64,000 nucleotides of DNA from PVC group bacterium (lineage in GTDB: Bacteria > Omnitrophota > Gorgyraeia > B26-G9). The translations under genes were made by a program, and so were the position numbers. Shown one piece after another: positions 1 to 56,795 of the stretch. The notes beneath the pieces were generated by a model. It saw only the letters and a list, made by a program, of their open reading frames with translations, made no database searches and had not been told where the DNA came from. How positions within the stretch are numbered: the first letter of the stretch is position 1; every line of letters starts with the position of its first letter. Location of the stretch: positions 3,112-67,111 of the forward strand of contig JAAEQR010000206.1 in NCBI GenBank assembly GCA_024231215.1, given 5' to 3'.

Positions 1-10
1 GAGGAATTAA

Positions 11-376
11 ATGAAATATTATGAAAAGTTAATAAAAGATTATGAAGAGTGGGAAAAAAGCGAGCCAAAAGAGGAGGCATATTTTAAAGCCTTTTTTTGT
101 TTTAAAGAGAAGGGAATATTATGCGTTTGGGAGTGTGATGTTGAGGTGCTTTTAATAGAAAGTAAAATAATAAAATTACAAAAATGGCTAGAAAAACCTA
201 CTGGCGAGCTTAAAATACATGGCAAAACGAAAGGTAACTGGTTAAGCCTAGAAATAGACAAAGCTGACAAAAAATATGTTAGCGGTTATATAGAGGATGG
301 GTGGGAAGAGCACAGTATTGCGGCTAACCGTACAAATTTAATAAAATGGCTTAAAAGGATGATGAGTGAGGTATGA
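11..376 (+). CDS. hypothetical protein (121 aa) at upstream edge of glycan locus segment
   Basis: Intact ORF on the same strand as the neighbouring genes. Its stop overlaps the next start (ATGA at 373-376). No motif recognised. Confidence 0.45.
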   Translation: MKYYEKLIKDYEEWEKSEPKEEAYFKAFFCFKEKGILCVWECDVEVLLIESKIIKLQKWLEKPTGELKIHGKTKGNWLSLEIDKADKKYVSGYIEDGWEEHSIAANRTNLIKWLKRMMSEV

Positions 377-894
377 AAAAATCTGAATTGAAATTTTTAA
401 AACATTCTATGATGTATGTGCCTAATTATGGAACTGTTGTGGAAATTGGCTCTTGGATGGGTAGAAGTTCTGAGCAATTGGTACGAGGAATAGACAAATA
501 TTGTCCTGAAGCAGATCTACGTTGTATTGATCCGTTTGATGCCGAATATTTCAAAAAAACACCCGGGTTGCAAAAGAAGACTAAAAAGAATGGTGTCACA
601 GATATTTACGGGTGTTTTAAAAAGCGAATGCGGCCATATAGCTACTCGCATATGAGAATGACATCTGTAGAAGCTGCAAAAAAAATTGTTGATGACGTTC
701 ATTTTGTATTTATAGATGGTAACCATGATTATGAATATGTTAAACAAGACATAGAGCTTTGGGGTGACAAATTAGAAGAAAATTGTGTAATGTGTGGACA
801 TGACTATCACAAACCTGGGGTAAAAAAAGCTGTTGATGAATTGTGTGAAAATGTAAGATTTCCAGCGGAAAGCATGTGGATGGTGGTAAAATGA
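373..894 (+). CDS. class I SAM-dependent O-methyltransferase, TylF/MycF-like (sugar O-methyltransferase family)
   Basis: Motif I-like VVEIGSWMGRSS (SAM binding). FIDGNHDYEY and GHDY resemble the metal-binding D..D/H..Y segment of macrocin-O-methyltransferase-like enzymes. Called from memory of the family. Confidence 0.5.
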   Translation: MKKSELKFLKHSMMYVPNYGTVVEIGSWMGRSSEQLVRGIDKYCPEADLRCIDPFDAEYFKKTPGLQKKTKKNGVTDIYGCFKKRMRPYSYSHMRMTSVEAAKKIVDDVHFVFIDGNHDYEYVKQDIELWGDKLEENCVMCGHDYHKPGVKKAVDELCENVRFPAESMWMVVK

Positions 895-1556
895 AAAAAA
901 CGATTATATTAACAACGGTTAATGATAATTTGTATTACCAAAATAATATGAAAGTTTTTCTTCAATCATTAAAGGAAAATGCTGCTGGAGAATTTGTAAG
1001 AATATATGTGGTTAATAATGAAAAAATTGAATGTGAATTAAAAAAAATAAACAAAAACATAGAAATCAAACATATAAATGAAAAGTTGAATCGTTCTCAA
1101 ATAATTATCAGAAACGCTTTATATTGCCATGAAGCATTAAAAGAAGGATATGAAAAAGTAGCTTGGATAGATAGTGATGTTATAATAAGGGCAAAATTAG
1201 GAGATTTTTGGGATGTTAAGCCCTGTGAATTAAAAGTGATTTACAGAAGAAAGAAAAAAGATCATATTAAGTTTCAGAGTGGTGTTTTTGTTATTGGGAA
1301 CTCATCAGAAATGAGAAAATATATTTGGAAATGGGCAAAAACGATTATTGATCTTAAAAAGGCCAAGTGGTATGATGGTCAGGAGTTAATGTGTGAATTG
1401 GTTTTAAAGTATAAAATAAAACAAATAGATATGCCTATTAAATATAATGATTCTAAGTTTAATGCCGATTCTGTAATTTGGCACTGCAAAAGTAGTCATT
1501 TTTCATATGAAAAGTATCAAAAGGAATATAGAAAATATCTTGAGGTAGTAAAATGA
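891..1556 (+). CDS. putative GT-A fold glycosyltransferase (DXD-type)
   Basis: N-terminal hydrophobic beta strand (IILTTVND) and an AWIDSDVII DXD-like motif. Start overlaps the previous stop (ATGA). The start at M891 is preferred over the 876 ORF start. Confidence 0.35.
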   Translation: MKKTIILTTVNDNLYYQNNMKVFLQSLKENAAGEFVRIYVVNNEKIECELKKINKNIEIKHINEKLNRSQIIIRNALYCHEALKEGYEKVAWIDSDVIIRAKLGDFWDVKPCELKVIYRRKKKDHIKFQSGVFVIGNSSEMRKYIWKWAKTIIDLKKAKWYDGQELMCELVLKYKIKQIDMPIKYNDSKFNADSVIWHCKSSHFSYEKYQKEYRKYLEVVK

Positions 1557-2179
1557 ATATATTTATAGATTGCGGAGCTTATAACGGTGATTCCATAAGA
1601 AAATTCCGTGAAAAGATAGATTATGAAAACAATAAAGATTCTTGGAGGTTTTACGCCTTCGAACCAAATCCTTATGTTGACATAGAATTGGAAAATGTTA
1701 TCATTATCAAGAAAGCTGTTTGGACAGAAGATTGTAAAAAGAAATTGTATTTCAGCAAAAGAAGCAAAAAAGATAATGTGACTACTCTGATGGAAAATAA
1801 AACCACACCACATTTGAATTTTAAAGATTATGCTGAGGTGGAATGTGTTGATTTGTCTTCGTGGCTATATAGAAATATAGACCTGGATGACCATGTAGTA
1901 TTGAAAATGGACATTGAGGGAGCTGAATATAATGTTTTGGCATGGATGGGCTACACTGATGTGTTGGCGTTGATTAATGAATTGTATTGTGAGTTTCACG
2001 TTAAAAAGTTAAAGATGGACCCACAAATACATTTAGATCTTATAAGAAGTCTCAAGGGAGAAACCTTAACATTGCACGGTGATCTAATCCCTTCAGTGAA
2101 ACATCCGGAATTTGCAGACATTGAGGCATATGTCAAATTAGGCGAAAGGCTTCTTAGAAAGTATAGGAGAGAAGCATGA
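1553..2179 (+). CDS. FkbM-family methyltransferase
   Basis: N-terminus FIDCGAYNGDSIRKF...FAFEPNP matches the FkbM domain signature (DxGAxxG ... xFEPxP). ATGA overlap with the upstream gene. Confidence 0.55.
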   Translation: MNIFIDCGAYNGDSIRKFREKIDYENNKDSWRFYAFEPNPYVDIELENVIIIKKAVWTEDCKKKLYFSKRSKKDNVTTLMENKTTPHLNFKDYAEVECVDLSSWLYRNIDLDDHVVLKMDIEGAEYNVLAWMGYTDVLALINELYCEFHVKKLKMDPQIHLDLIRSLKGETLTLHGDLIPSVKHPEFADIEAYVKLGERLLRKYRREA

Positions 2180-2667
2180 AAGGTAGACAGGCTTACCTTT
2201 TCGCTGGAGATACAAGGGTTGTGAAAACATACAAAAGTAATTACGTGAAGAACAAGCTGTCATCCGTAGAAAAAGAGATTGAGGTGTGGGGTGCTTTTAA
2301 TAGCAGACATTGCCCGGTTATTTATGATGTGTTTAACAATGGCTATATAATGGAAAAATACAACTATGCTTTAGGTGGCACCAAAGACATAAATATGGAT
2401 AGGGTTAAACAAACGCCTCTTGATTTAATCAAAGAATTAAACAGCATAGAAAGAGACTTAAAAAAATACAAGATAATCCACAGAGACATTAACCCCGGAA
2501 ACTTATTGTATTCTTCGAAGGAAAAATGTCTAAAGTTAATAGATTTCTACTGGGCTGTTTTTGAGGGTGAGAAATTGATAGATATACCAAAACTAAATAA
2601 ATACTATGGAAATGATAAAGAGGCTTTTGAAAAGTTAAGGAAACAGGTAAAATGGGCAAAGTCATAA
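2176..2667 (+). CDS. small protein-kinase-fold protein (Kdo/LPS-kinase or choline-kinase-like, putative sugar/alcohol kinase)
   Basis: Catalytic-loop motif IIHRDINPGNLL (HRDxxxxN) followed by LIDFYWA (DFG-like). Candidate beta3 lysine in VVKTYK. Only 163 aa, so it may be truncated or minimal. Confidence 0.4.
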   Translation: MKGRQAYLFAGDTRVVKTYKSNYVKNKLSSVEKEIEVWGAFNSRHCPVIYDVFNNGYIMEKYNYALGGTKDINMDRVKQTPLDLIKELNSIERDLKKYKIIHRDINPGNLLYSSKEKCLKLIDFYWAVFEGEKLIDIPKLNKYYGNDKEAFEKLRKQVKWAKS

Positions 2668-3560
2668 AGATATTATCAGAAACAGAAACAGAGAACTATA
2701 ATATATTTCCGCAAAGGCTGACATTGGAAAAGTGTGGTACGTTTCATTTGCATTATAGAAGCATTCGGATGGAATTTAAAGAAGAGGAATTTGTGGAATT
2801 TTGCAAATTAATCAAGAAAGGGTATTCTAACTGGAAAAATGGTGATGGAGTACCCGGTGACAAAGGGCATGTGTTTTTGAGCACTAAGCTTGTACCACCT
2901 GATGTTGTTGATAAAAACAAGTTAAAGGTTGAGTTATGTAACAATCAATACAAAAAACATGAAAAGGATATTTTTGGCAAGGATTCAAATTTCTTTAAAG
3001 ACAAAAGCTATATCCATGTTCACCACAGAAATATAAGACAAGAGTATTCATTGGCTGAGTTTAGAAAAATAATGGAATGTTATTCACGGGTGATATTGCC
3101 GTCGTCGGGATTGATAGAAATGTTTAAAAGTATACGATGCTTGGAGTATGTAGTTATAAGAAACTATGAAAATCTTCCTGAAAGTGTAGAATTTGGCCCT
3201 CACAGTGACTTGGATTTGCTTTTTGCTGATAAAGAAAATGTAAAAGAGTTTATAAGAATAACGAGTGCAGTGGCTACAAAAAAAGAGGGCTATAGAGTTC
3301 AGCACAAAGTTATGGTTGGGGATAATTTTATTTTGTGTGATTTGAGGGTTGTTGGTGATGATTATTTTCCCTATGAACTTGCAAGTTCGATGATAAATAA
3401 TCGAGTATGGTATAGACATTTTACTGTCCCAAGCGAGCAAGATCACTACGCAGGCTTATTATATCATGCACTTATTCACAAAAAAAGAGTATCAGAGGAT
3501 TATATGAAAAGATTGGGGCTGAAACGGCCTAAAGATAAGTCTGTGGGGTTTCATGTATAA
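2652..3560 (+). CDS. hypothetical protein; possible minimal nucleotidyltransferase fold
   Basis: FGPHSDLDLLF resembles the Pol-beta superfamily hG[GS]...DhD motif. Later GDDYFP. Weak. Overlaps the end of the kinase-like ORF by 16 nt. Confidence 0.35.
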   Translation: MGKVIKILSETETENYNIFPQRLTLEKCGTFHLHYRSIRMEFKEEEFVEFCKLIKKGYSNWKNGDGVPGDKGHVFLSTKLVPPDVVDKNKLKVELCNNQYKKHEKDIFGKDSNFFKDKSYIHVHHRNIRQEYSLAEFRKIMECYSRVILPSSGLIEMFKSIRCLEYVVIRNYENLPESVEFGPHSDLDLLFADKENVKEFIRITSAVATKKEGYRVQHKVMVGDNFILCDLRVVGDDYFPYELASSMINNRVWYRHFTVPSEQDHYAGLLYHALIHKKRVSEDYMKRLGLKRPKDKSVGFHV

Positions 3561-4923
3561 AGTAGGATTAATGGCAATTAGAGACTTCCCGTTGTGGAAA
3601 CAATGTTTGAAATCATTAGCATCACATGTTGATGAGCTGTATTTAAGATTCGACATGAGGACTGGTGATAAAAATATATTGCCGGAAATAGAGAGCTGTT
3701 GTGATGGCAAGCTAAAAAAGCTGATTAAAAGTGACATTGTTTGGGATAACCACAACTGGAAAGAGGAGTTACTAAGGATTTTAGATAGTGTACACCCGCG
3801 TGTTGTTTTGTTTCCTGATGAAGATGAAGAGTTTGACAGCGGAATAGAAAAAGACATTAAAAACTTTATGGATAGTGATTGCAAAGAAATGATATTTGAT
3901 TTTAAGACTATTCTACCAAAGGGTATAACAAAAGCCCCTTCTGAGGATGGGCGTGTATATCCTTTTACAAAACATGTAAAAGTTTTTAAGTGGAGGCCTG
4001 GATTAACATACATACCATACAAAAACAGAGGTAGGCTATTCACCTATTTGGATAATCCACAATATGAGGCAAAGTCAAAAATAACCCATTACCATTTTTA
4101 TACAATGGAACTTTACAACAAATGGAAAGACAGGCTACGCAACCGGTTTAAGCTGGAAGAAAATAAAAGGTTGTGCAACGGTCGAAAAACAATAGTTTAT
4201 ATTCTTGGCTCTACACGTAGTGGTAGTACAATGCTGGATTTGATGATTAGTTCCAATTCTGAATGTACAAGCTTGGGCGAGCTTTGCTTGTTACATAAAA
4301 GAGATTGTGGTTTTTGTGGAGCTAAATGCAAATATTGGAAAGAATACAAAAAGAAATTTAACGGCAATTACTATGAGACTGCATTTAAAGTGTTTAAAAA
4401 AGACATCCTTGTGGATTCCTCTAAGAAGTGGAAGTGGTTAAAAGAAAGGGCTGATAGTGAAAGCTATGAGTACAAAGTCATACATCTGGTTCGGAATGGT
4501 TTAGACAGGCTGAAGTTTAGAAAAGGAAAAAATGGGCACATAAAGCCTTATGTGGTGCAAGCCTGGGTTAACACTCACAGGAAGTGCGAGAAGGTACGAA
4601 AAAGGTATGGTGGGATATTGGTTAAGTATGAGGAAATCAACCAAGAAACTAATAGGATATATGAATATCTTGGTGTGAAATGGCAGGATAGAAAAGTGAA
4701 ATTTTGGGAGCACGAACACCACGGATTGCTAGGAAGCAAGACAGCCTATTCTTTAGTAAAAAAATGGCATAACAAAGAAAACGGTTGGTACAATATTTAT
4801 GCAGATGAACACGGATTTAATCTTAATCCACGCACTGGCCATGAATTTCTTAGCAAAGAAGATATTAAGGTGTTTAACAAATACGGTGGGCGTGAATTAA
4901 ATAAGGAGTTGGGGTATGAGTAA
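3553..4923 (+). CDS. two-domain protein with C-terminal sulfotransferase domain
   Basis: C-terminal half has a 5'-PSB-like loop IVYILGSTRSGSTMLD and a downstream 3'-PB-like HLVRNGLDR, as in PAPS-dependent sulfotransferases. The N-terminal 200 aa is unassigned and may be a glycosyltransferase-like domain. Confidence 0.5.
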   Translation: MYKVGLMAIRDFPLWKQCLKSLASHVDELYLRFDMRTGDKNILPEIESCCDGKLKKLIKSDIVWDNHNWKEELLRILDSVHPRVVLFPDEDEEFDSGIEKDIKNFMDSDCKEMIFDFKTILPKGITKAPSEDGRVYPFTKHVKVFKWRPGLTYIPYKNRGRLFTYLDNPQYEAKSKITHYHFYTMELYNKWKDRLRNRFKLEENKRLCNGRKTIVYILGSTRSGSTMLDLMISSNSECTSLGELCLLHKRDCGFCGAKCKYWKEYKKKFNGNYYETAFKVFKKDILVDSSKKWKWLKERADSESYEYKVIHLVRNGLDRLKFRKGKNGHIKPYVVQAWVNTHRKCEKVRKRYGGILVKYEEINQETNRIYEYLGVKWQDRKVKFWEHEHHGLLGSKTAYSLVKKWHNKENGWYNIYADEHGFNLNPRTGHEFLSKEDIKVFNKYGGRELNKELGYE

Positions 4924-5788
4924 AAAAGTACTTGTTACCGGAATCGCAGGCTTCCTGGGATCCCACATAGCAGAAAGATTAGTGGAGTTGGGATATGAGG
5001 TTGTAGGTGTAGATAATTTGTCTACTGGAAAACCAAAAAATATAAAGAAAATTTTTGATAAAATAGAATTCCATTGGATGAGCCTTGAACATTTTGATAT
5101 AGAAAACAAAGATATAGATATAATATGCCACCAAGCAGCGCTATGTAATGTCCCACATTCCATGAAAGACCCAGATGGATATTTTGAAAACAATGTAGCA
5201 GCAACACATAGAATGCTAATGGAAGCGCGTAAATACAATATCAAAAAAATAGTAATAGCTTCTTCAAGTGCTGCCGAAGAATGTATATCACCTTACGGAA
5301 TGTCTAAGAAGGTTACAGAAGATTATTCCAATCATTATAGAAACCTATATGATATGGATATAACAAACCTAAGATACTTTAATGTGTATGGCCCGAGGCA
5401 AAGCATGGACTCGCAACATTCTATGGTGATACCAATTTTTATCAATAAATTACTTAAAGGTGAAAGCCCAACTATTTATGGAGACGGAGAGCAAAGTCGG
5501 GATTTTATATATGTAGATGACGTGGTTGATGCTAATATTGCAGCAATTGAAGGCGATCATCAAGGCACTTGGGATGTGGGATCAGGGGAATCAACAAAAA
5601 TAATAGATTTATTTAACTGGATTAAAGCTTTAATTGGTGCTGAAGTTGATCCAATATTCACAAAAAAAAGGCCGGGAGATCCATTTGAAACGGAAGCGAT
5701 TGTGAGTGGTAGGTATTGGCAACCAAAAACAGACATGAGTGATGGACTTATAAAAACTATAGAATGGTGGAAGAATGAAAACGTGTAA
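4916..5788 (+). CDS. NAD-dependent sugar epimerase/dehydratase (short-chain dehydrogenase/reductase, SDR, family)
   Basis: Rossmann motif VLVTGIAGFLGSH (GxxGxxG), catalytic YGMSK (YxxxK), and length and architecture typical of UDP-sugar 4-epimerases. Confidence 0.8.
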   Translation: MSKKVLVTGIAGFLGSHIAERLVELGYEVVGVDNLSTGKPKNIKKIFDKIEFHWMSLEHFDIENKDIDIICHQAALCNVPHSMKDPDGYFENNVAATHRMLMEARKYNIKKIVIASSSAAEECISPYGMSKKVTEDYSNHYRNLYDMDITNLRYFNVYGPRQSMDSQHSMVIPIFINKLLKGESPTIYGDGEQSRDFIYVDDVVDANIAAIEGDHQGTWDVGSGESTKIIDLFNWIKALIGAEVDPIFTKKRPGDPFETEAIVSGRYWQPKTDMSDGLIKTIEWWKNENV

Positions 5789-5960
5789 AAATTGCACTTA
5801 TTGGGTTTCTAATAAAGACGAAAAAATGTTTTATCCAGAAACAGGTGATGGGCGATGCCATAGAAACGCTCCAATAGTAAGTAATGATGATCGTCACGAA
5901 TGGCCACCAACAATGGAAATGGATTGGTGTGGAGAATATAAAAAAAAGTTGGAAGAATGA
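5775..5960 (+). CDS. small Cys-rich protein (61 aa)
   Basis: CKNC...CHRNAP...WCGEY. Overlaps the epimerase stop. Member of a set of small Cys proteins scattered through the glycan locus. Confidence 0.4.
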   Translation: MKTCKNCTYWVSNKDEKMFYPETGDGRCHRNAPIVSNDDRHEWPPTMEMDWCGEYKKKLEE

Positions 5961-6104
5961 GTACGATTTACTCAAATGACATAGAAGTAATCTTAAAAGA
6001 TGGCAGCAGGCATAAAGGCACTATAGCCGCGATTAGATATATTGTTGACAAAGCTATTGATGAAAAGCTTGAGAAGATAATTAAAGAGTTGAGAGAGGCA
6101 AAGA

Positions 6105-7088
6105 ATGAGTAAAAATTGGCTCTTTTTAAGGGGTTATTTTGATCGCAACAACAAAAAATCACTAAAAAATGATTCTGACATGTGGGTACAATTGTTTTCC
6201 AAGTTAGTCCCGGATGGCATCACAATGCCAGATAGTGCAAACGGAGCAATATGCTATGTTGATTACAAGCAGACTATGCCGCAAATGTATGAGTATTTGC
6301 CAATAATTGGAAAAGAAAAAGCAAAGATGTTAGCAAAAGAATTTGACTACGTTTTCGCCAGAGGTGGCCACAAAGAATACGAGCCAATACTGAAGAAATG
6401 TAAAAACGCATACAAAATTTATTATGGTGCAGGAGCTCGCATAGTACCCGAAAAAGATTTAGGCTACAGTCTCATATTATGCGACTCTGAGGAACAGAAA
6501 AAGAAATGCAAGAAGAAATATCCACATATAAAAAGTTCTCTTTGGATAAAACCCGCAGCAAGACATTTCAAACCTGTTGAATGTGAAAAAGAATATGATG
6601 TATGTTACGTAGCTGATTGCCATAGTAAATTTCAGGAAAAGATTAAGCGCGTAAATTGGGTGTATAAGACAGCACCGAAAGACCTTAAAATACTTCATTT
6701 GGGGAAAAGTTCTATAAAACCGCCTAAGAATGTTACTGTTAAACGAGTGCAGAGGATTGATATGCCTAAGTGGTATTCTAAGTGTAAGGTGGGAATTGTT
6801 CCTTATAAGGGGTATGACAGTTGCCCTAGAGTAATTCCGGAGATGTTGGCTTGTGGGTTACCTTTGGTTGTTATGGATAGTGTTAATTTTTGGATAAAAA
6901 AGTATTTTTTCACATCCCCTTTCAAAGGTCGCAAAATAAACAAAAATGGGTTTTGGGAAATTGTTGGTGTTTATTTAAATCCTTACAAGCACAAAATAGA
7001 TTTTGTTGGCGAATTATCTGATTACTACCAAGAAAACCTCTCTCTCAAACCAGCAGCAGAACATTTAAGGAGTTTAATTAATGGATGA
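6105..7088 (+). CDS. putative GT-B fold glycosyltransferase (GT1/GT4-like)
   Basis: C-terminal VIPEMLACGLPLVVMDS resembles the conserved GT-B E..a.G.P motif. Size 327 aa. Confidence 0.45.
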   Translation: MSKNWLFLRGYFDRNNKKSLKNDSDMWVQLFSKLVPDGITMPDSANGAICYVDYKQTMPQMYEYLPIIGKEKAKMLAKEFDYVFARGGHKEYEPILKKCKNAYKIYYGAGARIVPEKDLGYSLILCDSEEQKKKCKKKYPHIKSSLWIKPAARHFKPVECEKEYDVCYVADCHSKFQEKIKRVNWVYKTAPKDLKILHLGKSSIKPPKNVTVKRVQRIDMPKWYSKCKVGIVPYKGYDSCPRVIPEMLACGLPLVVMDSVNFWIKKYFFTSPFKGRKINKNGFWEIVGVYLNPYKHKIDFVGELSDYYQENLSLKPAAEHLRSLING

Positions 7089-8310
7089 CAGAGCATTAGG
7101 ACAAATAATAACATTCTTTGAAGTGGTTAATGGCGCAAGTATGACAAGGACAAACAGGCCGCCTATGGGTGTATGGTTCTTAGAAAAAGAATCACTTATG
7201 GAATTTGTTATTAATAATAGAGTAATAACACCTATTAAAATAGGAATAACAGGCGCTCTTGATCCCAAAGCATTTGAAAAAATGTGTGAAAATTTCAGAG
7301 TGGGGTTTGAAGAAGGCAGAAAATGTAATTATATATTAAAAATAGAATCACAGACCGTATATGTTAATTTATACCAAGACAAAGGGTTTGGGAAGTTAAT
7401 AATAGCACCAAAAAGAATAATAGAAACAATAAACACAAGAAGAGACATGTCTATGTCAAGGTGGGGTACTTGGAAATATAAAATGGTTTATAATAAATGG
7501 TTTGAACTTTCTATACCATATAAATTTGGAACTGTTTTAGACATGCAGATACCTAACTGGATTACAAAGGTTAAGCATATTGAAAAAGAAAACTTAAACA
7601 AAAATGATAGTTTTTTTATTGGCAAGCGCGCTGAAAATGCTTTGGAATTAATGGCATTATTAAGAAGTTGTGCTACGGTGGCAGGGATTGAAAAGTATCT
7701 ATTTCTTGGATTTGGAACGTTGTTAGGTGTGGCTCGCGAAGGAGGTTTTATCCCCAATGATAGAGATTTAGACCATTGTGTGGCTGGTGAATATATAACA
7801 CCACACCAAGAAGAAAAGTTTCTTCAGGAAATAGCAAGGTCAAGAACTATTGACGGGAAAACTTATTCGAAAGGGCTGTATGAAGGAAGATGCAGAAAGC
7901 CAGTACGAAGGAGAGATGAGGGACAGCGGTTTTTGTGGACATCCTGTGGACACAAAAAAGTACACGGTCAAAAAGGGGTAAAATCATGCATATGGAAATT
8001 CTTTAAGCATGAAAAATATGATTGGCACTCAAAAGGCAGGCGCTGGATTAATACAAGAAAGTTTGATTATCAATTATATGATTATAATGGAGGTGAAGAT
8101 GCAATTGCAAAGGGAATACCAACAGGCTTGCTGGACCAGTTTAAAGAAATCAAATTTCATGGAGTCACAATAAACATACCCAAAAGAGTTGGTGCGTGTT
8201 TGGATGAATGGTATCCGGGTTGGGCACGACCAAAAAAAGGAGCAAGTGCAAAAAAGCATGTAATGGTTATTCCTGATTGGAAGAAGCCTAATGGGTGGAA
8301 GGTTTATTAG
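7081..8310 (+). CDS. LicD-family phosphotransferase-domain protein (CDP-alcohol phospho-group transferase)
   Basis: FLGFGTLLGVAREGGFIPNDRDLDHC matches the LicD/fukutin-like core (GTLLGAVRH.GFIPWDDDIDI). N-terminal about 180 aa unassigned. Confidence 0.5.
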   Translation: MDDRALGQIITFFEVVNGASMTRTNRPPMGVWFLEKESLMEFVINNRVITPIKIGITGALDPKAFEKMCENFRVGFEEGRKCNYILKIESQTVYVNLYQDKGFGKLIIAPKRIIETINTRRDMSMSRWGTWKYKMVYNKWFELSIPYKFGTVLDMQIPNWITKVKHIEKENLNKNDSFFIGKRAENALELMALLRSCATVAGIEKYLFLGFGTLLGVAREGGFIPNDRDLDHCVAGEYITPHQEEKFLQEIARSRTIDGKTYSKGLYEGRCRKPVRRRDEGQRFLWTSCGHKKVHGQKGVKSCIWKFFKHEKYDWHSKGRRWINTRKFDYQLYDYNGGEDAIAKGIPTGLLDQFKEIKFHGVTINIPKRVGACLDEWYPGWARPKKGASAKKHVMVIPDWKKPNGWKVY

Positions 8311-8327
8311 CACAAAACAAATAAAAG

Positions 8328-8356
8328 TTGACAAAATTAAGGAAATTATATATTAT
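8328..8356 (+). promoter_or_regulatory. sigma70-type promoter (TTGACA - 17 nt - TATTAT)
   Basis: Read directly: TTGACA at 8328-8333, 17-nt spacer, TATTAT at 8351-8356, in the gap after the last glycan-locus gene. Confidence 0.55.
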
Positions 8357-8362
8357 ATATGA

Positions 8363-8586
8363 ATAAGAGGACTATTCCAGATAAAACCGAAAGAGGGTTT
8401 CATTCATTAAAGCGGTTAAAGGAGAAAAGATTACCCGGTTCGATATGATTTCACACTAAAGGGCAAGGTGTTGTCGATCAAGTAGAGGTAAAATATAACT
8501 TAAAATAATTAACTAAAATAAACTGTTCACGTCAACGAAGGCGCTAGTTTGGGACTTAAGGTCTCAAGTTAGCGCCTTTTTTTATT
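8363..8586 (+). ncRNA. promoter-proximal leader transcript ending at an intrinsic terminator (lambda 6S/tR'-like arrangement), no ORF
   Basis: About 220 nt between the predicted transcription start and the terminator. It contains no ORF longer than 5 aa in the transcribed part. The next ATG (8588) follows the T-run directly. Confidence 0.3.
8539..8586 (+). terminator. rho-independent terminator
   Basis: GGCGCTAgtttgggacttaaggtctcaagtTAGCGCC stem followed by TTTTTTTATTT. Confidence 0.6.
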
Positions 8587-8587
8587 T

Positions 8588-8878
8588 ATGCCAAGACTAA
8601 TACGCTGCAGAAGCAAAATAAGACACAATACAAAATTTTCTCCTGAAGAAGATATTGGGGGAATGTTAATCGTTTTTGATGGTAATAGCATATACGCAAA
8701 ATGTAAGGGCTCAAACAATCACAACTGCAAGCGGTGGACAAAAATCGATGTGGATTTTCCAGGTATAAAAATAGACTTTGAAAAGGCAGCGTTAAAACAA
8801 ACTGCTATGCCAAAAAAATTCAGGTTTGAAATGGCCGGCAAAGATATTCAACATGCTCCTATTGTAATAGAGGATTAA
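8588..8878 (+). CDS. hypothetical small protein (96 aa), first gene after leader terminator
   Basis: ORF starting 2 nt after the terminator T-run. Basic, with scattered Cys/His (possible small zinc-binding regulator). No clear motif. Confidence 0.4.
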   Translation: MPRLIRCRSKIRHNTKFSPEEDIGGMLIVFDGNSIYAKCKGSNNHNCKRWTKIDVDFPGIKIDFEKAALKQTAMPKKFRFEMAGKDIQHAPIVIED

Positions 8879-8879
8879 T

Positions 8880-10934
8880 ATGCCAAACATAATGAGAGCA
8901 GATTTTAGAGCAATAAAATCATCTGATTTTCAACGTGTGCAACAAATCTTCAAAGAACGTGAGGACGCACGTATATACCACCAAAGCAGCATAGACAGAG
9001 GTTTGAGGGCGTGGCGGTATTATTTTGCCCTTTCCGGGTATCAGTGGCCTGAAAAAGAGCTTGCTGTCTTGAAGGATGAGGACAGGCTACCATATCAATA
9101 TGATGTTATCTCACCAAAAATTAACACTATGGCCGGTGCAATTATAACTGATATGCAGGAGCCTAATTGGGTTCCTATCGAAGGCGAAAAGACTACAACG
9201 ACTGAAGCGGTCATTGATTGCTTTAGCAGCGACAAAGAATTAACTAATTGGGATCCGGTTATGGTCCAATGTGTTCTTGGTGGGCTAATCCATGAGTCGT
9301 GGATACAAATGATTGAGACCACTGAGTATAACCCTAGTGGAAATATCGGCTTAGAATATATACGAGATGGCTCGTTGATTACTGATTCGTATTGGAAAAG
9401 TAATAGTGACAAACAACTTAAAAAAGCATGGAAAAGCCAGTATTTTACCGCTGAAGGCCTTGCACATAAATATGACAAAATGAGCGACAAGATAAGGCAG
9501 GCAATTGAGCAAGAAAAAAAAGGTGTTGACGGTGCGCCTACAGATGCTGTAGAACAAAGACAAAAGTTTGCCGGAAAAGTTGGAGCTGAATATGAAGTTA
9601 TAGAGGAAATGTGGCTTGAAATCATAAAAACAAAACGCTTGGTAGGCAGAAAAGAGGGTGAGTTTAAAAGGATTCCATTTCCTGTAACCGACAACCGCGA
9701 ATATTTGGAATTGTTTGCCGAACAAAACGGCATTGATTGGGAGACCGTAGACGCAGAGCCTTATAATGATATTGTATATCACGCAACTGCTATTTGTCCT
9801 TCATTAGATCCGCACATAATACTCAATGATGAAAAGCCGCGAATCCAAGTTAAGAGATTGCCTATATTTCTTTTTACCACAAAAAGGCATGATGGTAAAA
9901 ATAAAGGACTTGTAGAATCTATAATGGATTTGCAAACCACTCTAAACAAAAGAGTTAATTTAGAATCGGAGTTGATTGATAAAGCTAATGGGGGAATGAC
10001 GATATTAAATGAAGACCTTTTCGATGGTGATACCATAAAAGAAGCTGAACTTCAAAAAAACCTTAACAATCCAAAAAAATCAATGTTTGCTCGTTTTACA
10101 CCGGGGGTTCCGACCAGAGAAGAAATAACTCCAAAACAATACCCTTCACAGATTATGACACAAATTGAGTTAATGCTTAATACGTTGCTGCCTATTACAA
10201 GTGGCGTTTCTGATGCGTGGAGTTCTGAGAGTTCACAAGGTGAAAGCGGAGTCCTTTATGAGCGTAAAGTCCAAATGAATAAAATCGGGACTCTTATAAT
10301 GGACAAAGCTGTTAAGCAATTAATTAATAATCTTGGCGAGGCCTATTATTATCAATGGCAAATAACATACGCAAAACTACCGCGAGAAATAACAAAGCGC
10401 GGCGGAAAAGAGAAAATAATTTTAAACGAGAGTTTGCCGGATGGTTCCATAAAAAACTCTGTTGAGTATACGCCTCGATGCAGGGTAATAGTTACAGAAA
10501 ATTTGCAGTCTTCTACGCAACAATTAAGAAAAAGAACTATGGCAACTGAAATGCTACCACAAATTAACCCAGAAACAAACCAGCTTACATTTCAAAAGTT
10601 TTTGGGGATGTTGGTAAAAAATGTTGATGGATTGTCTGATGAAGAAAAAGATGAGTTTGAAGAGACTTTGAAACTTGAAGAAGCGGTTGCCATGACATCT
10701 AATATCAATTTAATATCACAAAATATAGCTGCAACGAGTGGCGCGAGAGTAGCAAATGAACAAAGTCAAATGATGTTGGCTAAGATGGGCAATGAGCCAG
10801 GGGCCGGACAGGTTCAAGAGCAGATTACGCCTCCAGGTGAGCAGGTTCAGGATGTGGTTACGCCACCACCTATACAGCAGCCACAAGAAGCAGCGGCGGC
10901 GACAAGCCCAGATACAGAAGAGGTAACAATTTAA
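8880..10934 (+). CDS. putative portal protein (positional inference)
   Basis: 684 aa. It directly precedes the scaffold-like and capsid-like genes. Q/P-rich C-terminal tail. No motif verified. Confidence 0.35.
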   Translation: MPNIMRADFRAIKSSDFQRVQQIFKEREDARIYHQSSIDRGLRAWRYYFALSGYQWPEKELAVLKDEDRLPYQYDVISPKINTMAGAIITDMQEPNWVPIEGEKTTTTEAVIDCFSSDKELTNWDPVMVQCVLGGLIHESWIQMIETTEYNPSGNIGLEYIRDGSLITDSYWKSNSDKQLKKAWKSQYFTAEGLAHKYDKMSDKIRQAIEQEKKGVDGAPTDAVEQRQKFAGKVGAEYEVIEEMWLEIIKTKRLVGRKEGEFKRIPFPVTDNREYLELFAEQNGIDWETVDAEPYNDIVYHATAICPSLDPHIILNDEKPRIQVKRLPIFLFTTKRHDGKNKGLVESIMDLQTTLNKRVNLESELIDKANGGMTILNEDLFDGDTIKEAELQKNLNNPKKSMFARFTPGVPTREEITPKQYPSQIMTQIELMLNTLLPITSGVSDAWSSESSQGESGVLYERKVQMNKIGTLIMDKAVKQLINNLGEAYYYQWQITYAKLPREITKRGGKEKIILNESLPDGSIKNSVEYTPRCRVIVTENLQSSTQQLRKRTMATEMLPQINPETNQLTFQKFLGMLVKNVDGLSDEEKDEFEETLKLEEAVAMTSNINLISQNIAATSGARVANEQSQMMLAKMGNEPGAGQVQEQITPPGEQVQDVVTPPPIQQPQEAAAATSPDTEEVTI

Positions 10935-10947
10935 AAAGGATAGAAAT

Positions 10948-11292
10948 ATGAAAAAAGTAGATTTGTTTGAGAAATTGACCAAAAAACAGATGGTTGAATA
11001 TTACAAGGGCCTTCCTAAGCTTAGTGCGAACACAAAAGATAGTGGCGGCGAAGAGCTGAAAAAGCTAAAAGCAGAGAATGAAAAGCTTAAAGCCGACTAT
11101 GCACGATTAACGAATATGTATAATGAGTTGGGGTCTCAGGCAGATGACAAAGAAGTTGAATCTGTTAAAGAGGTTGGGAGTTTACGATTAAGTGATATTC
11201 ACGACGAAGATAAGTTAGTTGAAGAATTAAAAAAAGCTTGTGGAACAATTACAAAACTAAGAAAAAAATTGAAAAAAAGAAAAATTAAATAA
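10948..11292 (+). CDS. coiled-coil protein (114 aa), head-assembly region
   Basis: Heptad-rich, K/E-rich sequence between the putative portal and the scaffold-like gene. Confidence 0.4.
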   Translation: MKKVDLFEKLTKKQMVEYYKGLPKLSANTKDSGGEELKKLKAENEKLKADYARLTNMYNELGSQADDKEVESVKEVGSLRLSDIHDEDKLVEELKKACGTITKLRKKLKKRKIK

Positions 11293-11414
11293 ATCTGAAG
11301 TGGAGTTGGAAGAATAATCATACACCCCCGGCATTGACCGGAGATTGTTTGGAAGACAACACCCCCACAAAGAAAATTTAAACGAGGCTATAGAAAGCCG
11401 GAAAGAAGGAAAGA

Positions 11415-12764
11415 ATGGAATTTGGAAGCGAAGAAGAGAGATTGGTAGCTATTGACGAAATTGACTCAAGCAATCCAGAGGAAGAGGGGAAGCTTGATGA
11501 AATTATGAATGCAGATATTGTTGAGAAGAGAGCGGAAGAGGAAGCGGACGATCAAACCCCCGCACAATCTGAAGCTGAAACTCCAGCAGAGGAAACGCCA
11601 CCAGCAGAGGAAACGCCTGCGGCGGAAACTCCAGCAGAAGAAGCGCCGGTTGATCCCAAAACTTACACAATTTCAGAAGGTGATTTGCCTGAAGGTTATA
11701 ATACGCCTGGAAAAGCTTTCAAGACTTTGGGAGAACAGAAAGATCTTATTTCAAAGCAAGGCGAGAGAATTCAAAAGGACATAGAAAAGTATAGTACTCT
11801 TGAGGAAGAAAACAAAAGGCTTAGAGAACAAATAAATAAGCCTGTTGAAACACCGCAAGAACAAACGGGTTCGATTGATTCTAACAAAATAGTTGAAATA
11901 AGTGGCAAACTCAAAAAGGCCAGGGAGGAAGACCCATATTCTGTTGATGCTTTAAATCTGCAATTGGAACTTGAAAATGCACAGTTCCGGTATACGCAGC
12001 GAGTGGAGCAGGATGGCAGGAAGCAGTTTGATGAGTATAAAAATCTTCAAGAGCAAACAAAACAACAAGAAGAAAGAAATGCAGCAGTAGAAAGGGAATA
12101 TAAAGACATATCTGAATTTGCAAATGAGTACAAAAATGAGTTTGAGTTGTCGAGGCCAGCGAAAGAAGTAGACCGAGACTACCAGAATTGGGCGGAAAGT
12201 GTGGCAGCGCAATATTACAAAAAAAATACTAAGGATTGGAATGAAATAGGAGTGGCTTTGAAAAATTTAGAATTAGGCTCCCCCACCTTAGTAAATAATT
12301 GTAAGTCTGCCAATGTTCCAACCGAAGCGCCTACTCAGGATGTAGCTAATTATATCAAAATATGTGAGGTAATGGCTTACAGAGAAGGTGTTAGGACAAA
12401 CCAAGATGGTTCAACTTATCGATTAACAAGATATGATCCTGTATTAGGGAAAGATATACCTGATAGATTCCCAAATCTTAAAGCTGCGTTCGAAGATAGA
12501 AGGGTGAGGGGCGGCTATTATAAACAACAGGCTGCTGAAAAATTTGATGAAGGAGTTAAGGCACAGCGAGCGGCATCACAAAAAAGAGATACTAATGTAC
12601 TTAGTAACGATTCAGATGCAAAAGCTGGCGGTGCACGAACTTTGGCGCAAATTGATCAAGATATAAGAAATATATCTCCCACACCCGAAAACGAAGAAAA
12701 ATTAGATCAGCTTTTAGAAGAGGCAAGATCTTTTACTAAGAGCGCTCAAGGAAGCGTCAAATAA
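11415..12764 (+). CDS. putative scaffolding protein
   Basis: Highly acidic, low-complexity N-terminus (EETPAEETP repeats) and long coiled coils. It sits immediately upstream of the capsid-like gene. Confidence 0.4.
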   Translation: MEFGSEEERLVAIDEIDSSNPEEEGKLDEIMNADIVEKRAEEEADDQTPAQSEAETPAEETPPAEETPAAETPAEEAPVDPKTYTISEGDLPEGYNTPGKAFKTLGEQKDLISKQGERIQKDIEKYSTLEEENKRLREQINKPVETPQEQTGSIDSNKIVEISGKLKKAREEDPYSVDALNLQLELENAQFRYTQRVEQDGRKQFDEYKNLQEQTKQQEERNAAVEREYKDISEFANEYKNEFELSRPAKEVDRDYQNWAESVAAQYYKKNTKDWNEIGVALKNLELGSPTLVNNCKSANVPTEAPTQDVANYIKICEVMAYREGVRTNQDGSTYRLTRYDPVLGKDIPDRFPNLKAAFEDRRVRGGYYKQQAAEKFDEGVKAQRAASQKRDTNVLSNDSDAKAGGARTLAQIDQDIRNISPTPENEEKLDQLLEEARSFTKSAQGSVK

Positions 12765-12782
12765 TTATTAATTGAGGATATT

Positions 12783-14024
12783 ATGGGAGTATTAAATACA
12801 CCCCCGCAGTTAGCAAACGCTAGTTTGATTGCGGGATTTGATAAGAAATTGCAGATGAAATCTTCTCTACTGGATATATATGAGAATTCTTCTGGTATGT
12901 ATGTTATGGAGAATAAGAAAATACCAAATGCAATAAGAATGATGGTTGACCAGAAAGTGGCAGATAAAAATAATATAACCATTACCTTTACAGGTGAATT
13001 GCAAGGGTTAGGTATATATGACCTAACCAGGGCACGAGGGTTGGAAAGGTATCCGATAACAAAGTCTGTTACAGTATATAGAAATATTGTCAGGAAAGTT
13101 GTTGGTGAGCCTGGGTATGGCCCTGATGAGCTTGACGCAAAACCTTATGGTCTGTATGAACAGTGGATAGACCAGTTAGGTGAATGGAACAGGCAGCATC
13201 ACGGCTTAAGTCTTAGACAGTGTGTTTTGGAGCAATATGGCGAGTCTTTGCAATATGGAAGAACGGCAGCTTTTTGCCCACGCAATTGGACACCTAATAT
13301 TTTGGTTGCAGGCCGCTCGCTGAGAAATATGCAAGTACCTTACCAAACTAATAGGGCTACCTATACAACTAATATTGTTAATGCTATTTTTGCAAGTGGC
13401 GCAAACAGCCTAACTCCATTAGTTACTCAAACTCTAAATATGCCAAACCTATCCAACGCACAAAACGCATGTTTGGGTATGCGAATAGAGAAACTTTCAA
13501 TTCCTGGCTTTAGTGCCGGTGGTTGGATTTTAACTATGAGTGAGCTGCAGGCGACCTATTTAACTGATCCGGTTTGGAGCACTCGGAATTTAGGAAGTCA
13601 GTACATGCAGTTTAACGACTTAAATGAAAAAGTTCAGAACTGGTATGGCGTAATGGGCCGATACAAGGATTTTCTCTTGGTTCAAGATATTCTTCAGCCT
13701 ACGTTGATCATATCTGGAACTTCTGCTCCCTGGGGTATGACGGCAGGTTATATGTATCCTGGCACTGATGACGACAGGGAGAGAGACGATGATGACACCA
13801 GAGATACGGCAAATATCTTAGGAAAAGCAGCCGTTATTGATTGGAACCCTCAGAAACTGCATCACATTAGTGATGACGACGATTATAAAATTACTCTGGG
13901 TCACGGAACGTCTCTTGTAGAGGGTGTTTCGCAGCCTATTTACGATGATGAGGCGCCGCGTTTTGGTTCTCATGAGCAATACACGTCTGCTGTAATGATT
14001 TGTGGATTGCCGGATTATGTTTGA
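12783..14024 (+). CDS. putative major capsid protein
   Basis: 413 aa ORF following the scaffold-like gene, with a strong SD (GAGGATATTATG). Acidic insertion DDDRERDDDDTRD. Positional inference only. Confidence 0.4.
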   Translation: MGVLNTPPQLANASLIAGFDKKLQMKSSLLDIYENSSGMYVMENKKIPNAIRMMVDQKVADKNNITITFTGELQGLGIYDLTRARGLERYPITKSVTVYRNIVRKVVGEPGYGPDELDAKPYGLYEQWIDQLGEWNRQHHGLSLRQCVLEQYGESLQYGRTAAFCPRNWTPNILVAGRSLRNMQVPYQTNRATYTTNIVNAIFASGANSLTPLVTQTLNMPNLSNAQNACLGMRIEKLSIPGFSAGGWILTMSELQATYLTDPVWSTRNLGSQYMQFNDLNEKVQNWYGVMGRYKDFLLVQDILQPTLIISGTSAPWGMTAGYMYPGTDDDRERDDDDTRDTANILGKAAVIDWNPQKLHHISDDDDYKITLGHGTSLVEGVSQPIYDDEAPRFGSHEQYTSAVMICGLPDYV

Positions 14025-51652: not shown

Positions 51653-51991
51653 TTAAAATCGTGTATTTTCAAGAATGGCTCCACTGAGGTTAGCTCCCCT
51701 GAGGTTAGCTCCACTGAGGTTAGCTCCACTGAGATCGGCTCCACTGAGGTTAGCTCCCCTGAGATCGGCTCTGACGAAATTAACTCTACTGAGATCGGCT
51801 CTACTGAGATCGGTATTAAAAAGCCGCGCGTCACTGAGATTGGCTCCACTGAGATCGACATTACTGAGGTTAGTTCCTGCAAGGTCAGCATCACTAAGGT
51901 TAGTTTTGTGTTGTACCACAAAATCAGCATATGATATGTTTTCATCAGTTTCCGCAATCACATTGTCTGTATTCCAAATTTGATGTTCCAT
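51653..51991 (-). CDS. pentapeptide-repeat protein (16 x A[D/N]LSG)
   Basis: Read directly: [25 protein letters not shown] ... [10 protein letters not shown]. First gene of the - strand block. Preceded by the conserved leader. Confidence 0.6.
51681..51905. repeat. 15-bp tandem repeat array (CTGAGGTTAGCTCCA-type) encoding the pentapeptide repeats
   Basis: Periodic nucleotide repeat visible on both strands. It generates multiple overlapping ghost ORFs in the track. Confidence 0.7.
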
Positions 51992-56501: not shown

Positions 56502-56795
56502 GTGAAAAGTAGTACCATAACAATAGTAGAAACCGCTGATTATCCGGAAAGCTATGTGGAATTTGTCGCGTGGGTTACTAAGTGGGTTCGGAAAATACCA
56601 GAGGAGTATTTAAATAAGGCAGAAATATCATTTAACCAAACAGCCTGGGATGGTGTAGCAGTTGAAATATATTACAAAAACATGGAGATTGAAGAAGCAA
56701 ATAGGCTAATAAAGAAGTTTGAAGTAGAGGAAAAAGAGATAGCTGAATATCTTAGGCTACGTGAAAAATACAAGTACCATAGGAATTTAGAGTGA
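56502..56795 (+). CDS. hypothetical protein (97 aa)
   Basis: SD GAGAGGTGAAGAAGTG, with GTG or ATG start uncertain. Overlaps the next gene. Confidence 0.35.
   Translation: MKSSTITIVETADYPESYVEFVAWVTKWVRKIPEEYLNKAEISFNQTAWDGVAVEIYYKNMEIEEANRLIKKFEVEEKEIAEYLRLREKYKYHRNLE

Follow-up and report, generated by a model that had tools for sequence, protein, structure and literature searches.

A glycan assembly and decoration module between the terminase and portal genes is a hallmark of an uncultured phage lineage with P22-type portals

Why does a tailed phage keep a long run of sugar-modifying genes between its packaging and head genes, and what do the encoded enzymes decorate? The question is raised by a 64,000-bp stretch of DNA (the window) of a 71,941-bp contig from a metagenome-assembled genome (MAG) named "PVC group bacterium", 7.9 kb of the contig lying outside the window. 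The original prediction, made from the letters of the window, was that positions 1–8310 hold a phage locus for multi-step glycan synthesis, between the terminase and the portal genes. We find that this locus is real and that its boundaries were drawn too narrowly. The two ends of a single phage-encoded module for glycan assembly and decoration lie in the window; this module begins at ~55.3 kb after the genes for the small and large terminase subunits (TerS and TerL), runs off the end of the window, comes back in at position 1 and stops at position 8310, before the portal gene (Table 1). The module measures at least 17 kb, or ~25 kb if the 7.9 kb outside the window joins both ends, and makes up 25–35% of the genome. 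Its complement in this phage includes two sulfotransferases, an FkbM methyltransferase, a kinase-fold protein, a short-chain dehydrogenase/reductase (SDR) epimerase and about seven glycosyltransferase-like proteins; the enzyme families expected for methylation, sulfation, glycosyl transfer and epimerisation were confirmed, with LicD-type phosphotransfer included. The architecture is not a one-off, and is instead a hallmark of a whole uncultured phage lineage with P22-type portals.

The plus strand of the window carries, over 1–35.3 kb, glycan genes followed by the portal and structural genes; the minus strand is used over 36–52 kb, with the recombination genes for ERF and YqaJ among its contents; and the plus strand resumes from 52.6 kb with TerS and TerL, which start a unit that continues into the second glycan block. 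The sign of the GC skew switches at ~36 kb and ~52 kb, precisely where gene orientation flips. The placement of the locus between terminase and portal is seen directly in two relatives, L097 and L002 (L-numbers denote metagenomic and IMG/VR relative contigs), whereas in the window itself the terminase genes lie at 52.7–55.2 kb, the portal gene starts at 8880 and the junction falls outside. A direct junction of window position 64000 with position 1 would create a TGA stop and was rejected because the second sulfotransferase would lose its C-terminal region (the Pfam match ends at profile position 200 of 252).

Two facts speak for bacterial polysaccharide-locus DNA flanking a prophage, or for a chimeric assembly: the contig belongs to a MAG that bears the name of a bacterium, and the GC content of the module (0.35–0.38) is slightly under that of the structural genes (0.40). 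That explanation is essentially refuted. The module is not host DNA because its codon use matches that of the structural genes: synonymous codon usage agrees at r=0.96, and GC content at third codon positions (GC3) is 0.318 in the module and 0.312 in the structural genes. Strand skew is continuous across the module, which shares its contig with TerS/TerL, the portal gene and ERF/YqaJ. No tRNA gene was found by a tRNA scan of the 64-kb window and no Rfam family by an Rfam scan of it, and neither an integrase nor an attachment-like feature was seen among the genes of the window; a host-like break in codon usage or GC together with attachment sites, which the original prediction had named as the signs of flanking host DNA, was thus not observed. 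Moreover, more than 15 independent contigs, metagenomic or from IMG/VR and drawn from different samples, show the same order of genes, the genome-size ones among them measuring 68–74 kb. The module is phage DNA.

The original prediction held that eleven co-oriented, translationally coupled genes lie within 11–8310, and this was borne out. Neighbouring open reading frames (ORFs) overlap by 4–19 nucleotides (nt), the one exception being a 144-nt gap before position 6105, and ribosome-binding sites of the GGAG or GAGG type precede most of the eleven; an ORF further upstream appears to terminate at window position 10. Domains were assigned by profile searches with Pfam (reporting limit E≤0.1), NCBIfam and PHROGs. 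The gene described as encoding a TylF-like O-methyltransferase does specify a class I S-adenosylmethionine (SAM) methyltransferase, though one of the Methyltransf_24 family, and the TylF family (PF05711) gave no match to its product within the Pfam reporting limit. The FkbM methyltransferase scored above the cut-offs of both family profiles, the GT-B glycosyltransferase was recovered just under its cut-off, and the SDR epimerase was matched over the whole profile and has both of the motifs that had been ascribed to it, GxxGxxG (VTGIAGFLGS) and the catalytic YxxxK (YGMSK). The best NCBIfam matches of the epimerase (GalE, 2e-41; TviC, 1.5e-37) are both under their own cut-offs. A GT-A enzyme with a DXD motif had been proposed at 876–1556; the product has a DSD motif and a weak similarity to GT8, but the similarity is sub-threshold. 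Aligned by hhalign with the GT8-like family represented in the second block, it gave E=0.0015 and a probability of 17%, with 186 collinear columns and the DxD motifs aligned. We therefore regard a GT-A glycosyltransferase as a plausible but weak assignment for this sequence.

The sulfotransferase domain, for which motifs of the 5'-phosphosulfate-binding (5'-PSB) and 3'-phosphate-binding (3'-PB) kind had been noted, is one on which invariant residues and structural matches agree. It forms the C-terminal ~250 amino acids (aa) of a fusion protein whose N-terminal part of ~205 aa has no recognised fold. In the 5'-PSB loop (GSTRSGST) residues R222, G224, S225 and T226 are invariant in seven homologues, as is R314 in the 3'-PB motif (LVRNGLDR, containing RNG). 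The block-mean predicted local distance difference test score (pLDDT) of a model of the C-terminal domain is mostly 64–93, with low-confidence stretches at residues 382–395 and 419–429, and the top 15 PDB matches to this model in Foldseek are all sulfotransferases (E from 3e-7 to 5e-4). Motifs and modelled fold together place the domain in the superfamily of sulfotransferases that depend on 3'-phosphoadenosine 5'-phosphosulfate (PAPS). The structural neighbours comprise the CurM sulfotransferase domain, tyrosylprotein sulfotransferases and SULTs; enzymes acting on small-molecule or acyl carrier protein-linked acceptors and enzymes acting on protein tyrosine are both among them. The N-terminal ~205 aa have a pLDDT below 50 and an alignment depth of two sequences; membership of this part in the GT8-like family was considered and rejected, as it bears no resemblance to that family.

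Three further proteins bear on phosphotransfer. The LicD-family transferase was confirmed: the protein consists of a C-terminal LicD part of ~220 aa preceded by a lineage-specific N-terminal domain of ~180 aa, it carries the family's GTLLG...D-x-D signature on a nucleotidyltransferase fold of the Pol-beta-like type, and the nearest viral structural matches to its model are LicD proteins of giant viruses. The kinase-fold protein likewise held up, having an HRDINPGN catalytic loop (HRDxxxxN type), an IDFYW motif and matches to PDB kinases down to 8.9e-7; it is a candidate sugar or alcohol kinase. The second block contributes a nucleotidyltransferase of the small HIGH-motif class, whose nearest solved relatives are PPAT/NMNAT (4.6e-5). 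By sequence, the kinase fold, the nucleotidyltransferase and the LicD-like enzyme would fit the logic of a cytidine diphosphate (CDP)-alcohol phosphotransfer pathway. The 302-aa protein encoded next to the kinase-fold gene has in its C-terminal half a GPHSDLDLLF motif that, read by eye, is like that of a Pol-beta-type nucleotidyltransferase; a PDB sequence search with this protein gave no match, and such searches with the 456-aa sulfotransferase fusion and the 288-aa protein of the second block produced none of use.

The second block is a run of overlapping plus-strand genes that extends from 55.3 kb to the end of the window. Its 288-aa GT8-like protein is one member of an extensive, so far unannotated family (428 representative clusters at 50% identity) with invariant columns R81, D99 and D101 of the DxD motif, E192, H219 and G221, and the profile of this family matches LgtC (GT8) across the DxD region with E=0.0055. 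The same domain is also found C-terminally or internally in proteins of 800–940 aa (among P0245, P0253, P0262, P0271 and P0305), where its fusion partners are radical-SAM domains, or a TupA-like ATP-grasp domain together with GT2. The second sulfotransferase, which is cut by the window end, has the motifs HIPRCAGKS (the 5'-phosphosulfate loop) and RNPWERMVS; in a tblastn search of 50,697 GenBank phage records it found two distant matches only, both in uncultured phages of more than 460 kb. The small ORFs that follow TerL are inferred to be homologous to the Cys-rich small ORF and the GNAT gene (PF00583, 6e-6) found at the equivalent position in L097.

Small Cys-rich ORFs with paired CxxC motifs are scattered among the glycosyltransferase genes (57975–58256, 60818–60991, 61097–61297 and 62265–62636), and those at 58253–58639 and 59360–59662 are also small and Cys-rich. 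Several share the terminal pattern CxxCL..AL..L, of which 62265–62636 holds two copies, and the ORF at 57975–58256 has a homologue in L006/L016, 34% identical and likewise within the glycan module. These CxxC proteins could be zinc-ribbon adaptors.

Table 1 Coordinates of the two glycan blocks, their genes and the neighbouring packaging and head genes in the window, with supporting matches and homologues in relative contigs.
Feature	Position	Strand	Evidence	Homologues in relatives
Portal-proximal block, eleven ORFs	11–8310	+		
121-aa ORF	11–376	+	Sub-threshold Nudix_hydro only (E=0.04); overlaps next gene by 4 nt	
Class I SAM methyltransferase (Methyltransf_24)	373–894	+	PF13578 1.3e-14, 55 bits vs 26.3 cut-off	L007 (64%), L003, L005, L006, L097, L100
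Probable GT-A (GT8-like) glycosyltransferase	876–1556	+	GT8 E=0.008, below cut-off; DSD motif	None in relatives examined
FkbM-family methyltransferase	1553–2179	+	PF05050 4.8e-12, 46.8 bits vs 22.7; TIGR01444 7.2e-14, 52.4 vs 37.7	L007 (74% identical)
Minimal protein-kinase-like fold, 163 aa	2176–2667	+	Pkinase 1.4e-6; Choline_kinase 3e-5; RIO1 1e-4	None in relatives examined
302-aa protein	2652–3560	+	DUF4269 E=6.7e-4, below cut-off	None in relatives examined
Sulfotransferase fusion, 456 aa	3553–4923	+	Sulfotransfer_3 4.8e-6, match restricted to PAPS loop	Stand-alone homologues: L007 (61%), L018 (35%)
Extended-SDR NAD-dependent nucleotide-sugar epimerase/dehydratase	4916–5788	+	PF01370 2.4e-53, whole profile; phrog_540 2.7e-69	
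61-aa Cys-containing small ORF	5775–5960	+	No family match	
GT-B glycosyltransferase	6105–7088	+	Glyco_trans_1_4 7.8e-6, 26.6 bits vs 27 cut-off	L007 (56%), L012 (61%), L018, L098
LicD/FKTN/FKRP-family phosphotransferase (PF04991)	7081–8310	+	LicD 1e-7	37 homologues, mostly ~400 aa, several on 68–74 kb contigs
Conserved 96-aa ORF, directly 5' of portal start codon	8588–8878	+	No family match	All relatives reaching the portal, 33–57% identity
Portal protein	8880–10934	+	phrog_156 9.6e-24; relatives' portals match PF16510 P22_portal	
Capsid candidate, among the structural genes	12783–14024	+	C-terminus ...HEQYTSAVMICGLPDYV	
Small terminase subunit TerS	52663–53244	+	phrog_51 3e-28	
Large terminase subunit TerL	53222–55180	+	phrog_979 1.7e-140; ~650-aa family, conserved C-terminal extension	~650-aa homologues on contigs up to 70 kb
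Second glycan block, directly after TerS/TerL	55.3–64.0 kb	+		
Small ORFs after TerL: 67 aa; 120 aa, Cys-rich; 125 aa, possible GNAT-like motif; 50 aa; 97 aa	55344–56795	+	No Pfam matches	
288-aa GT8-like GT-A family member	56792–57658	+		L001–L003, L094, L095, L100, L101
GT2 glycosyltransferase	58630–59367	+	PF00535 2.2e-17	L003, L004, L017, L094, L095
128-aa HIGH-motif nucleotidyltransferase, cytidylyltransferase-like superfamily	59659–60045	+	PF01467 6.2e-6; TIGR00125	L002 (52%), L003, L094–L097, L099–L101
GT9-like (heptosyltransferase-like) GT-B protein	60042–60821	+	PF01075 E=0.0012, 18.7 bits vs 22 cut-off; weak	
GT-B glycosyltransferase	61249–62265	+	phrog_2170 3.7e-13; weak GT4	
Second sulfotransferase (Sulfotransfer_2 type)	63436–64000, cut by window end	+	PF03567 1.4e-8, residues 3–169	

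Comparison with the relatives, those from IMG/VR having been reached with the LicD alignment as query, indicates that a glycan module occupies the same place in every lineage member examined, down to 26–36% portal identity. From the terminase side, L001–L004 have TerL followed by at least 10 kb of plus-strand genes (GT2, Methyltransf_23/24, epimerase, GT11- and GT47-like proteins and radical SAM enzymes), a run that in L002 extends to a P22-type portal. From the portal side, L005, L006/L016, L007, L012–L015, L018 and L092 share the order GT-B, LicD-like gene, small ORFs, 96-aa ORF, portal, scaffold-like gene and a capsid candidate of 413–416 aa, and a GT-B gene directly upstream of the LicD-like gene is found in L005, L006, L013–L016 and L092 as it is in the window. 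The whole interval is uninterrupted in L097, where ~4.6 kb hold, in order, TerS, TerL, a Cys-rich small ORF, GNAT, nucleotidyltransferase, LicD-like, GT92/GT2, Methyltransf_24 and GT2 genes, an 84-aa ORF and the portal gene; the TerL and portal of L097 are 36–37% identical to those of the window.

What is kept across these contigs and what is exchanged differ. The nucleotidyltransferase gene directly adjoins the LicD-like gene in L094, L095, L096, L097, L099 and L101, and the two are separated by a gap of ~0.7 kb in L100. The LicD-like protein is conserved about as well as the portal (47% versus 52% identity in L005; 60% versus 64.5% in L007). For most of the remaining module genes no homologue could be detected in the relatives examined, and L005 and L006 carry instead a set comprising a DegT aminotransferase, a GFO/IDH/MocA oxidoreductase and a hexapeptide acetyltransferase. 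Sulfotransferases recur in four lineage members, namely the window (two), L007 (61%), L018 (35%) and L006/L016 (a different family, PF00685). As judged from these sequences, the conserved core of the module is a HIGH-type nucleotidyltransferase plus a LicD/FKRP-type phosphotransferase, usually accompanied by a Methyltransf_24 methyltransferase, a GT-A/GT2 enzyme and a GT-B, and the tailoring genes vary. A conserved LicD-like gene among variable others thus gives the pattern of a fixed attachment or core step plus a diversifying glycan.

A megablast search with window positions 1–12000 gave no match in the 50,697 GenBank phages, nor did tblastn searches of the same records with the portal, the capsid candidate, the LicD-like protein, the sulfotransferase domain and the 288-aa glycosyltransferase.

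We tentatively favour the reading, to which we give a little under even confidence, that the module is a self-contained cytoplasmic pathway decorating virion proteins. The epimerase, or in relatives the aminotransferase, oxidoreductase and acetyltransferase sets, would convert host nucleotide sugars, from which the glycosyltransferases would assemble an oligosaccharide in the cytoplasm on a soluble acceptor. The nucleotidyltransferase would activate a phosphorylated alcohol or sugar, the phosphate ester possibly coming from the kinase-fold protein, as a nucleoside diphosphate donor of the CDP type; like LicD, fukutin and FKRP, the LicD-like enzyme would move the phospho-group to the glycan; and the methyltransferases and PAPS-dependent sulfotransferases would cap the glycan. 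By analogy with mycobacteriophages and giant viruses, the acceptor would most likely be a virion protein, modified while the terminase and morphogenesis genes are expressed, such that each phage would gain a lineage-specific surface glycan. We favour a virion acceptor because the module is a fixed core trait, passed on vertically, and no optional insertion, because it lies within the terminase transcription unit, because machinery for export and lipid carriers is missing from it, and because a conserved attachment step with a variable glycan matches the mycobacteriophage and giant-virus systems.

All module products are predicted to be soluble. None of those in the window reaches a Kyte-Doolittle mean of 2.0 over a 19-residue window (the maximum, 1.94, is at the N-terminus of the GT9-like protein), and among 115 module genes of seven relatives no product looks polytopic, only four small ones (91–133 aa) having a single hydrophobic peak of at least 1.8. 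The Pfam output for the module contains no Wzx, Wzy, Gtr or priming phosphoglycosyltransferase family.

Could the enzymes act on the host envelope instead? Being soluble, they might modify lipid-linked host intermediates (of teichoic acid, O-antigen, capsule or surface-layer glycan) at the inner face of the membrane, adding phospho-alcohol, sugar, methyl and sulfate groups; host transporters would then export the products, and the altered cell surface might, for instance, block superinfection or the adsorption of progeny to infected cells and debris. We consider this somewhat unlikely. LicD-family and cytidylyltransferase-like enzymes are typical of wall-polymer decoration, an IspD and LicD pair in some gut "Flandersviridae" phages has been interpreted as modifying teichoic acid (PMC8008677), and in another phage family a kinase and glycosyltransferase set between portal and capsid genes has been read as modifying the capsule (PMC8008677). 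ERF and YqaJ, moreover, are compatible with a temperate lambdoid lifestyle, in which conversion genes are common. The module is, however, no optional moron, given its invariant place in the lineage and a core gene conserved like the portal; its genes are translationally coupled within the transcription unit of the terminase and do not adjoin an integrase or attachment site; it claims a quarter or more of the genome; and membrane proteins of the Gtr, Wzx/Wzy or acyltransferase kind were not found in it. Nor was an integrated copy found in 185,579 species-representative genomes, where only four MAG contigs of 5.9–11.4 kb matched. In the Flandersviridae, IspD and LicD are an occasional insertion in the replication module (PMC8008677), whereas here the nucleotidyltransferase and LicD-like genes are a fixed core pair next to the portal.

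The boundary with the portal operon also bears on this choice. Between the LicD-like gene and the 96-aa ORF lie 277 nt that contain, on the plus strand, a near-consensus sigma-70-like promoter sequence (TTGACA-17-TATTAT, 8328–8356) and, ~180 nt past it, a hairpin with a 20-bp stem followed by a T-run (8537–8579) that corresponds to no Rfam family. Late expression, as originally predicted, would agree with the co-orientation of the module with the late genes, but the predicted promoter and terminator at 8328–8579 divide it from the portal operon, and the terminator makes it a separate unit, as envelope remodelling would have it. In its arrangement this stretch, which also encloses a 29-codon ORF, is like a small RNA gene or a lambdoid late antitermination unit (PR'-short RNA-tR').

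Several further points weigh against a glycosylated virion. With a predicted promoter and terminator between the module and the portal operon, the module may not be co-transcribed with the capsid genes. Neither the capsid candidate (which ends ...HEQYTSAVMICGLPDYV) nor any structural ORF has a Ser/Thr-rich C-terminal tail; low-complexity stretches rich in Pro, Thr and Glu occur among the structural proteins in the portal and the scaffold-like protein only. Both the virion target and the glycan are read from gene content. LicD-family enzymes and nucleotidyltransferases of TagD size are classic enzymes of teichoic-acid and lipopolysaccharide decoration, and products decorated in the cytoplasm can pass to host ABC exporters, so that the missing phage membrane proteins allow a host-envelope target too. 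Since no gene for PAPS synthesis was found in the window, sulfation would rely on the host. The nucleotidyltransferase is nearest to PPAT/NMNAT among solved structures, not to TagD; the GT8-like assignment at 876–1556, the GT9-like protein and the substrate class of the kinase are all sub-threshold calls.

A third possibility is that the genome itself carries the glycans, which would be built on its hydroxymethylated bases at about the time of packaging and protect it from restriction. Phage glycosyltransferases related to enzymes of lipopolysaccharide and teichoic-acid synthesis do place mono- to trisaccharides on 5-hydroxymethylcytosine, and the clusters concerned, which are rich in glycosyltransferases, sometimes lie near terminase or structural genes and include epimerases, secondary glycosyltransferases and kinases (Pyle et al., bioRxiv 10.1101/2023.12.21.572611). 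Here the terminase genes lead straight into the module, and in L002 a C5 DNA methylase (PF00145) is encoded amid the GT-B genes and an N6/N4 methylase downstream of TerL. We nevertheless consider DNA hypermodification very unlikely. Known pathways are defined by a 5mYOX/TET enzyme or a thymidylate-synthase-like (ThyS) hydroxymethylase, with or without a C5 methylase, none of which was detected in window ORFs of at least 100 aa, and the window holds no nucleotide-metabolism genes. About seven glycosyltransferases, two sulfotransferases, LicD-type phosphotransfer and methylation far exceed any known DNA modification, and the sulfotransferases, LicD and so large a glycosyltransferase set have no counterpart in the hypermodification clusters.

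Virion decoration, the reading we favour, has two precedents. Phage-encoded methyltransferases reportedly act on structural proteins of mycobacteriophages. Capsid and tail-tube subunits of mycobacteriophages are glycosylated by glycosyltransferases that the phages themselves encode (Freeman et al. 2023, Cell Host Microbe, as summarised in PMC12619734 and also cited in PMC12582341). There, as in our module, the glycosyltransferases are soluble, phage-encoded and cytoplasmic, and the glycan is thought to shield the particle. Mycobacteriophages are, however, actinobacterial siphoviruses with 2–4 such genes and with glycans on C-terminal extensions of the capsid and tail-tube subunits, whereas the phage described here, known from its genes alone, combines a P22-type portal with a module of at least 17 kb encoding sulfotransferases, a LicD-type phosphotransferase, a nucleotidyltransferase and a kinase fold, and has neither a Ser/Thr-rich extension nor sequence similarity to the mycobacteriophage system.

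In giant viruses (Mimivirus, Moumouvirus, Tupanvirus and Cotonvirus), clade-specific glycogene clusters serve the fibrils of the virion, and chlorovirus capsid glycosylation has also been reviewed (PMC9614988). The giant-virus clusters comprise 6–21 genes and are host-independent, with enzymes for sugar-nucleotide synthesis, glycosyltransferases, methyltransferases and, in some clades, enzymes of sulfate metabolism (PMC9614988). As in our phage lineage, their content varies between related viruses, and there the virion is the target. These are eukaryotic viruses with unrelated genomes, their sulfate enzymes are of the SAT and APS-kinase types in contrast to the sulfotransferases found here, and the placement between packaging and head genes is specific to the phage lineage.

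The CDP-alcohol pathways with which the core can be compared are bacterial LicA/LicC/LicD (phosphocholine) and ISPD/fukutin/FKRP or TarI/LicD-type (ribitol phosphate). The nucleotidyltransferase of the module differs from the GT-A-like LicC/IspD class in belonging to the small HIGH (PF01467) class, and the LicD-like protein differs from the LicD of these pathways in its additional N-terminal domain.

Lysogenic-conversion modules (gtrABC, O-acetyltransferases) consist of 1–3 genes for integral membrane proteins beside the integrase or attachment site, and are expressed from the prophage in P22-like and other temperate phages. Like our module, they consist of glycan-modifying genes carried by phages whose morphogenesis genes are of the P22 type; unlike them, the module is very large, predicted to be all-soluble, and situated in the terminase-to-portal interval.

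We made several observations outside the module. TerL extends ~200 aa past its Terminase_6N/6C core; the extension is conserved in the ~650-aa homologues of the lineage and missing from the best cultured-phage matches, which are Methanoculleus and Rhizobium viruses at 42–44% identity over the first 435 residues. The structural block ends with a 1640-aa protein (30357–35279) that has an ART-PolyVal ADP-ribosyltransferase domain (PF18760, 4.9e-9), a domain typical of polyvalent virion proteins that are probably ejected. A gene for a pentapeptide-repeat protein (51653–51991; PF00805, 2e-37), which may be a DNA mimic or anti-defence protein, lies on the minus strand shortly before the terminase genes; L002 has one in the same position (5928–6449, minus strand). 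Strong Shine-Dalgarno sites in nearly all module genes argue against a Bacteroidota host, though some relatives are binned as "Bacteroidales".

A virus-encoded glycosylation cluster is not new as a concept. The original prediction called sulfated, methylated phage glycans essentially undescribed; our literature searches found no sulfated phage glycan, and no description of a phage-encoded sulfotransferase acting on virions or of this lineage, but glycosylation of phage virions and giant-virus glycogene clusters had already been described. To our knowledge, glycosylation of phage particles has so far been demonstrated only for mycobacteriophages, with few genes, and has been considered rare elsewhere. 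New are the core of LicD and nucleotidyltransferase, the repeated occurrence of sulfotransferases, the constant place between terminase and portal, and a module so large for a genome of ~72 kb. It is possible rather than probable that a widespread, uncultured lineage of ~70-kb phages runs a host-independent cytoplasmic glycosylation factory, with a constant core of nucleotidyltransferase and LicD-type enzyme and sugar-tailoring genes that diversify rapidly, and coats its virions in phage-specific glycans, which in this phage would be O-methylated, phospho-substituted and sulfated; if it does, this would be the first sulfated glycan, and the first "glycogene cluster" in the style of giant viruses, described for a bacteriophage particle.

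Taken together, our findings indicate that an entire lineage of environmental phages maintains a glycan module in one and the same position between packaging and head genes, ranging from ~4.6 kb in L097 to at least 17 kb here, and that this module diversifies in the manner of bacterial O-antigen loci and giant-virus glycogene clusters. Under either target, the nucleotidyltransferase and LicD pair and the unannotated GT8-like family are concrete, testable enzymes. If the host envelope is the target, the module would be an unusually large, lineage-fixed surface-conversion system expressed alongside the terminase. If the virion is the target, tailed phages too would bear self-made, antigenically variable glycan coats, sulfated ones included, with a bearing on phage stability, adsorption, aggregation with marine polysaccharides, grazing and immune recognition.

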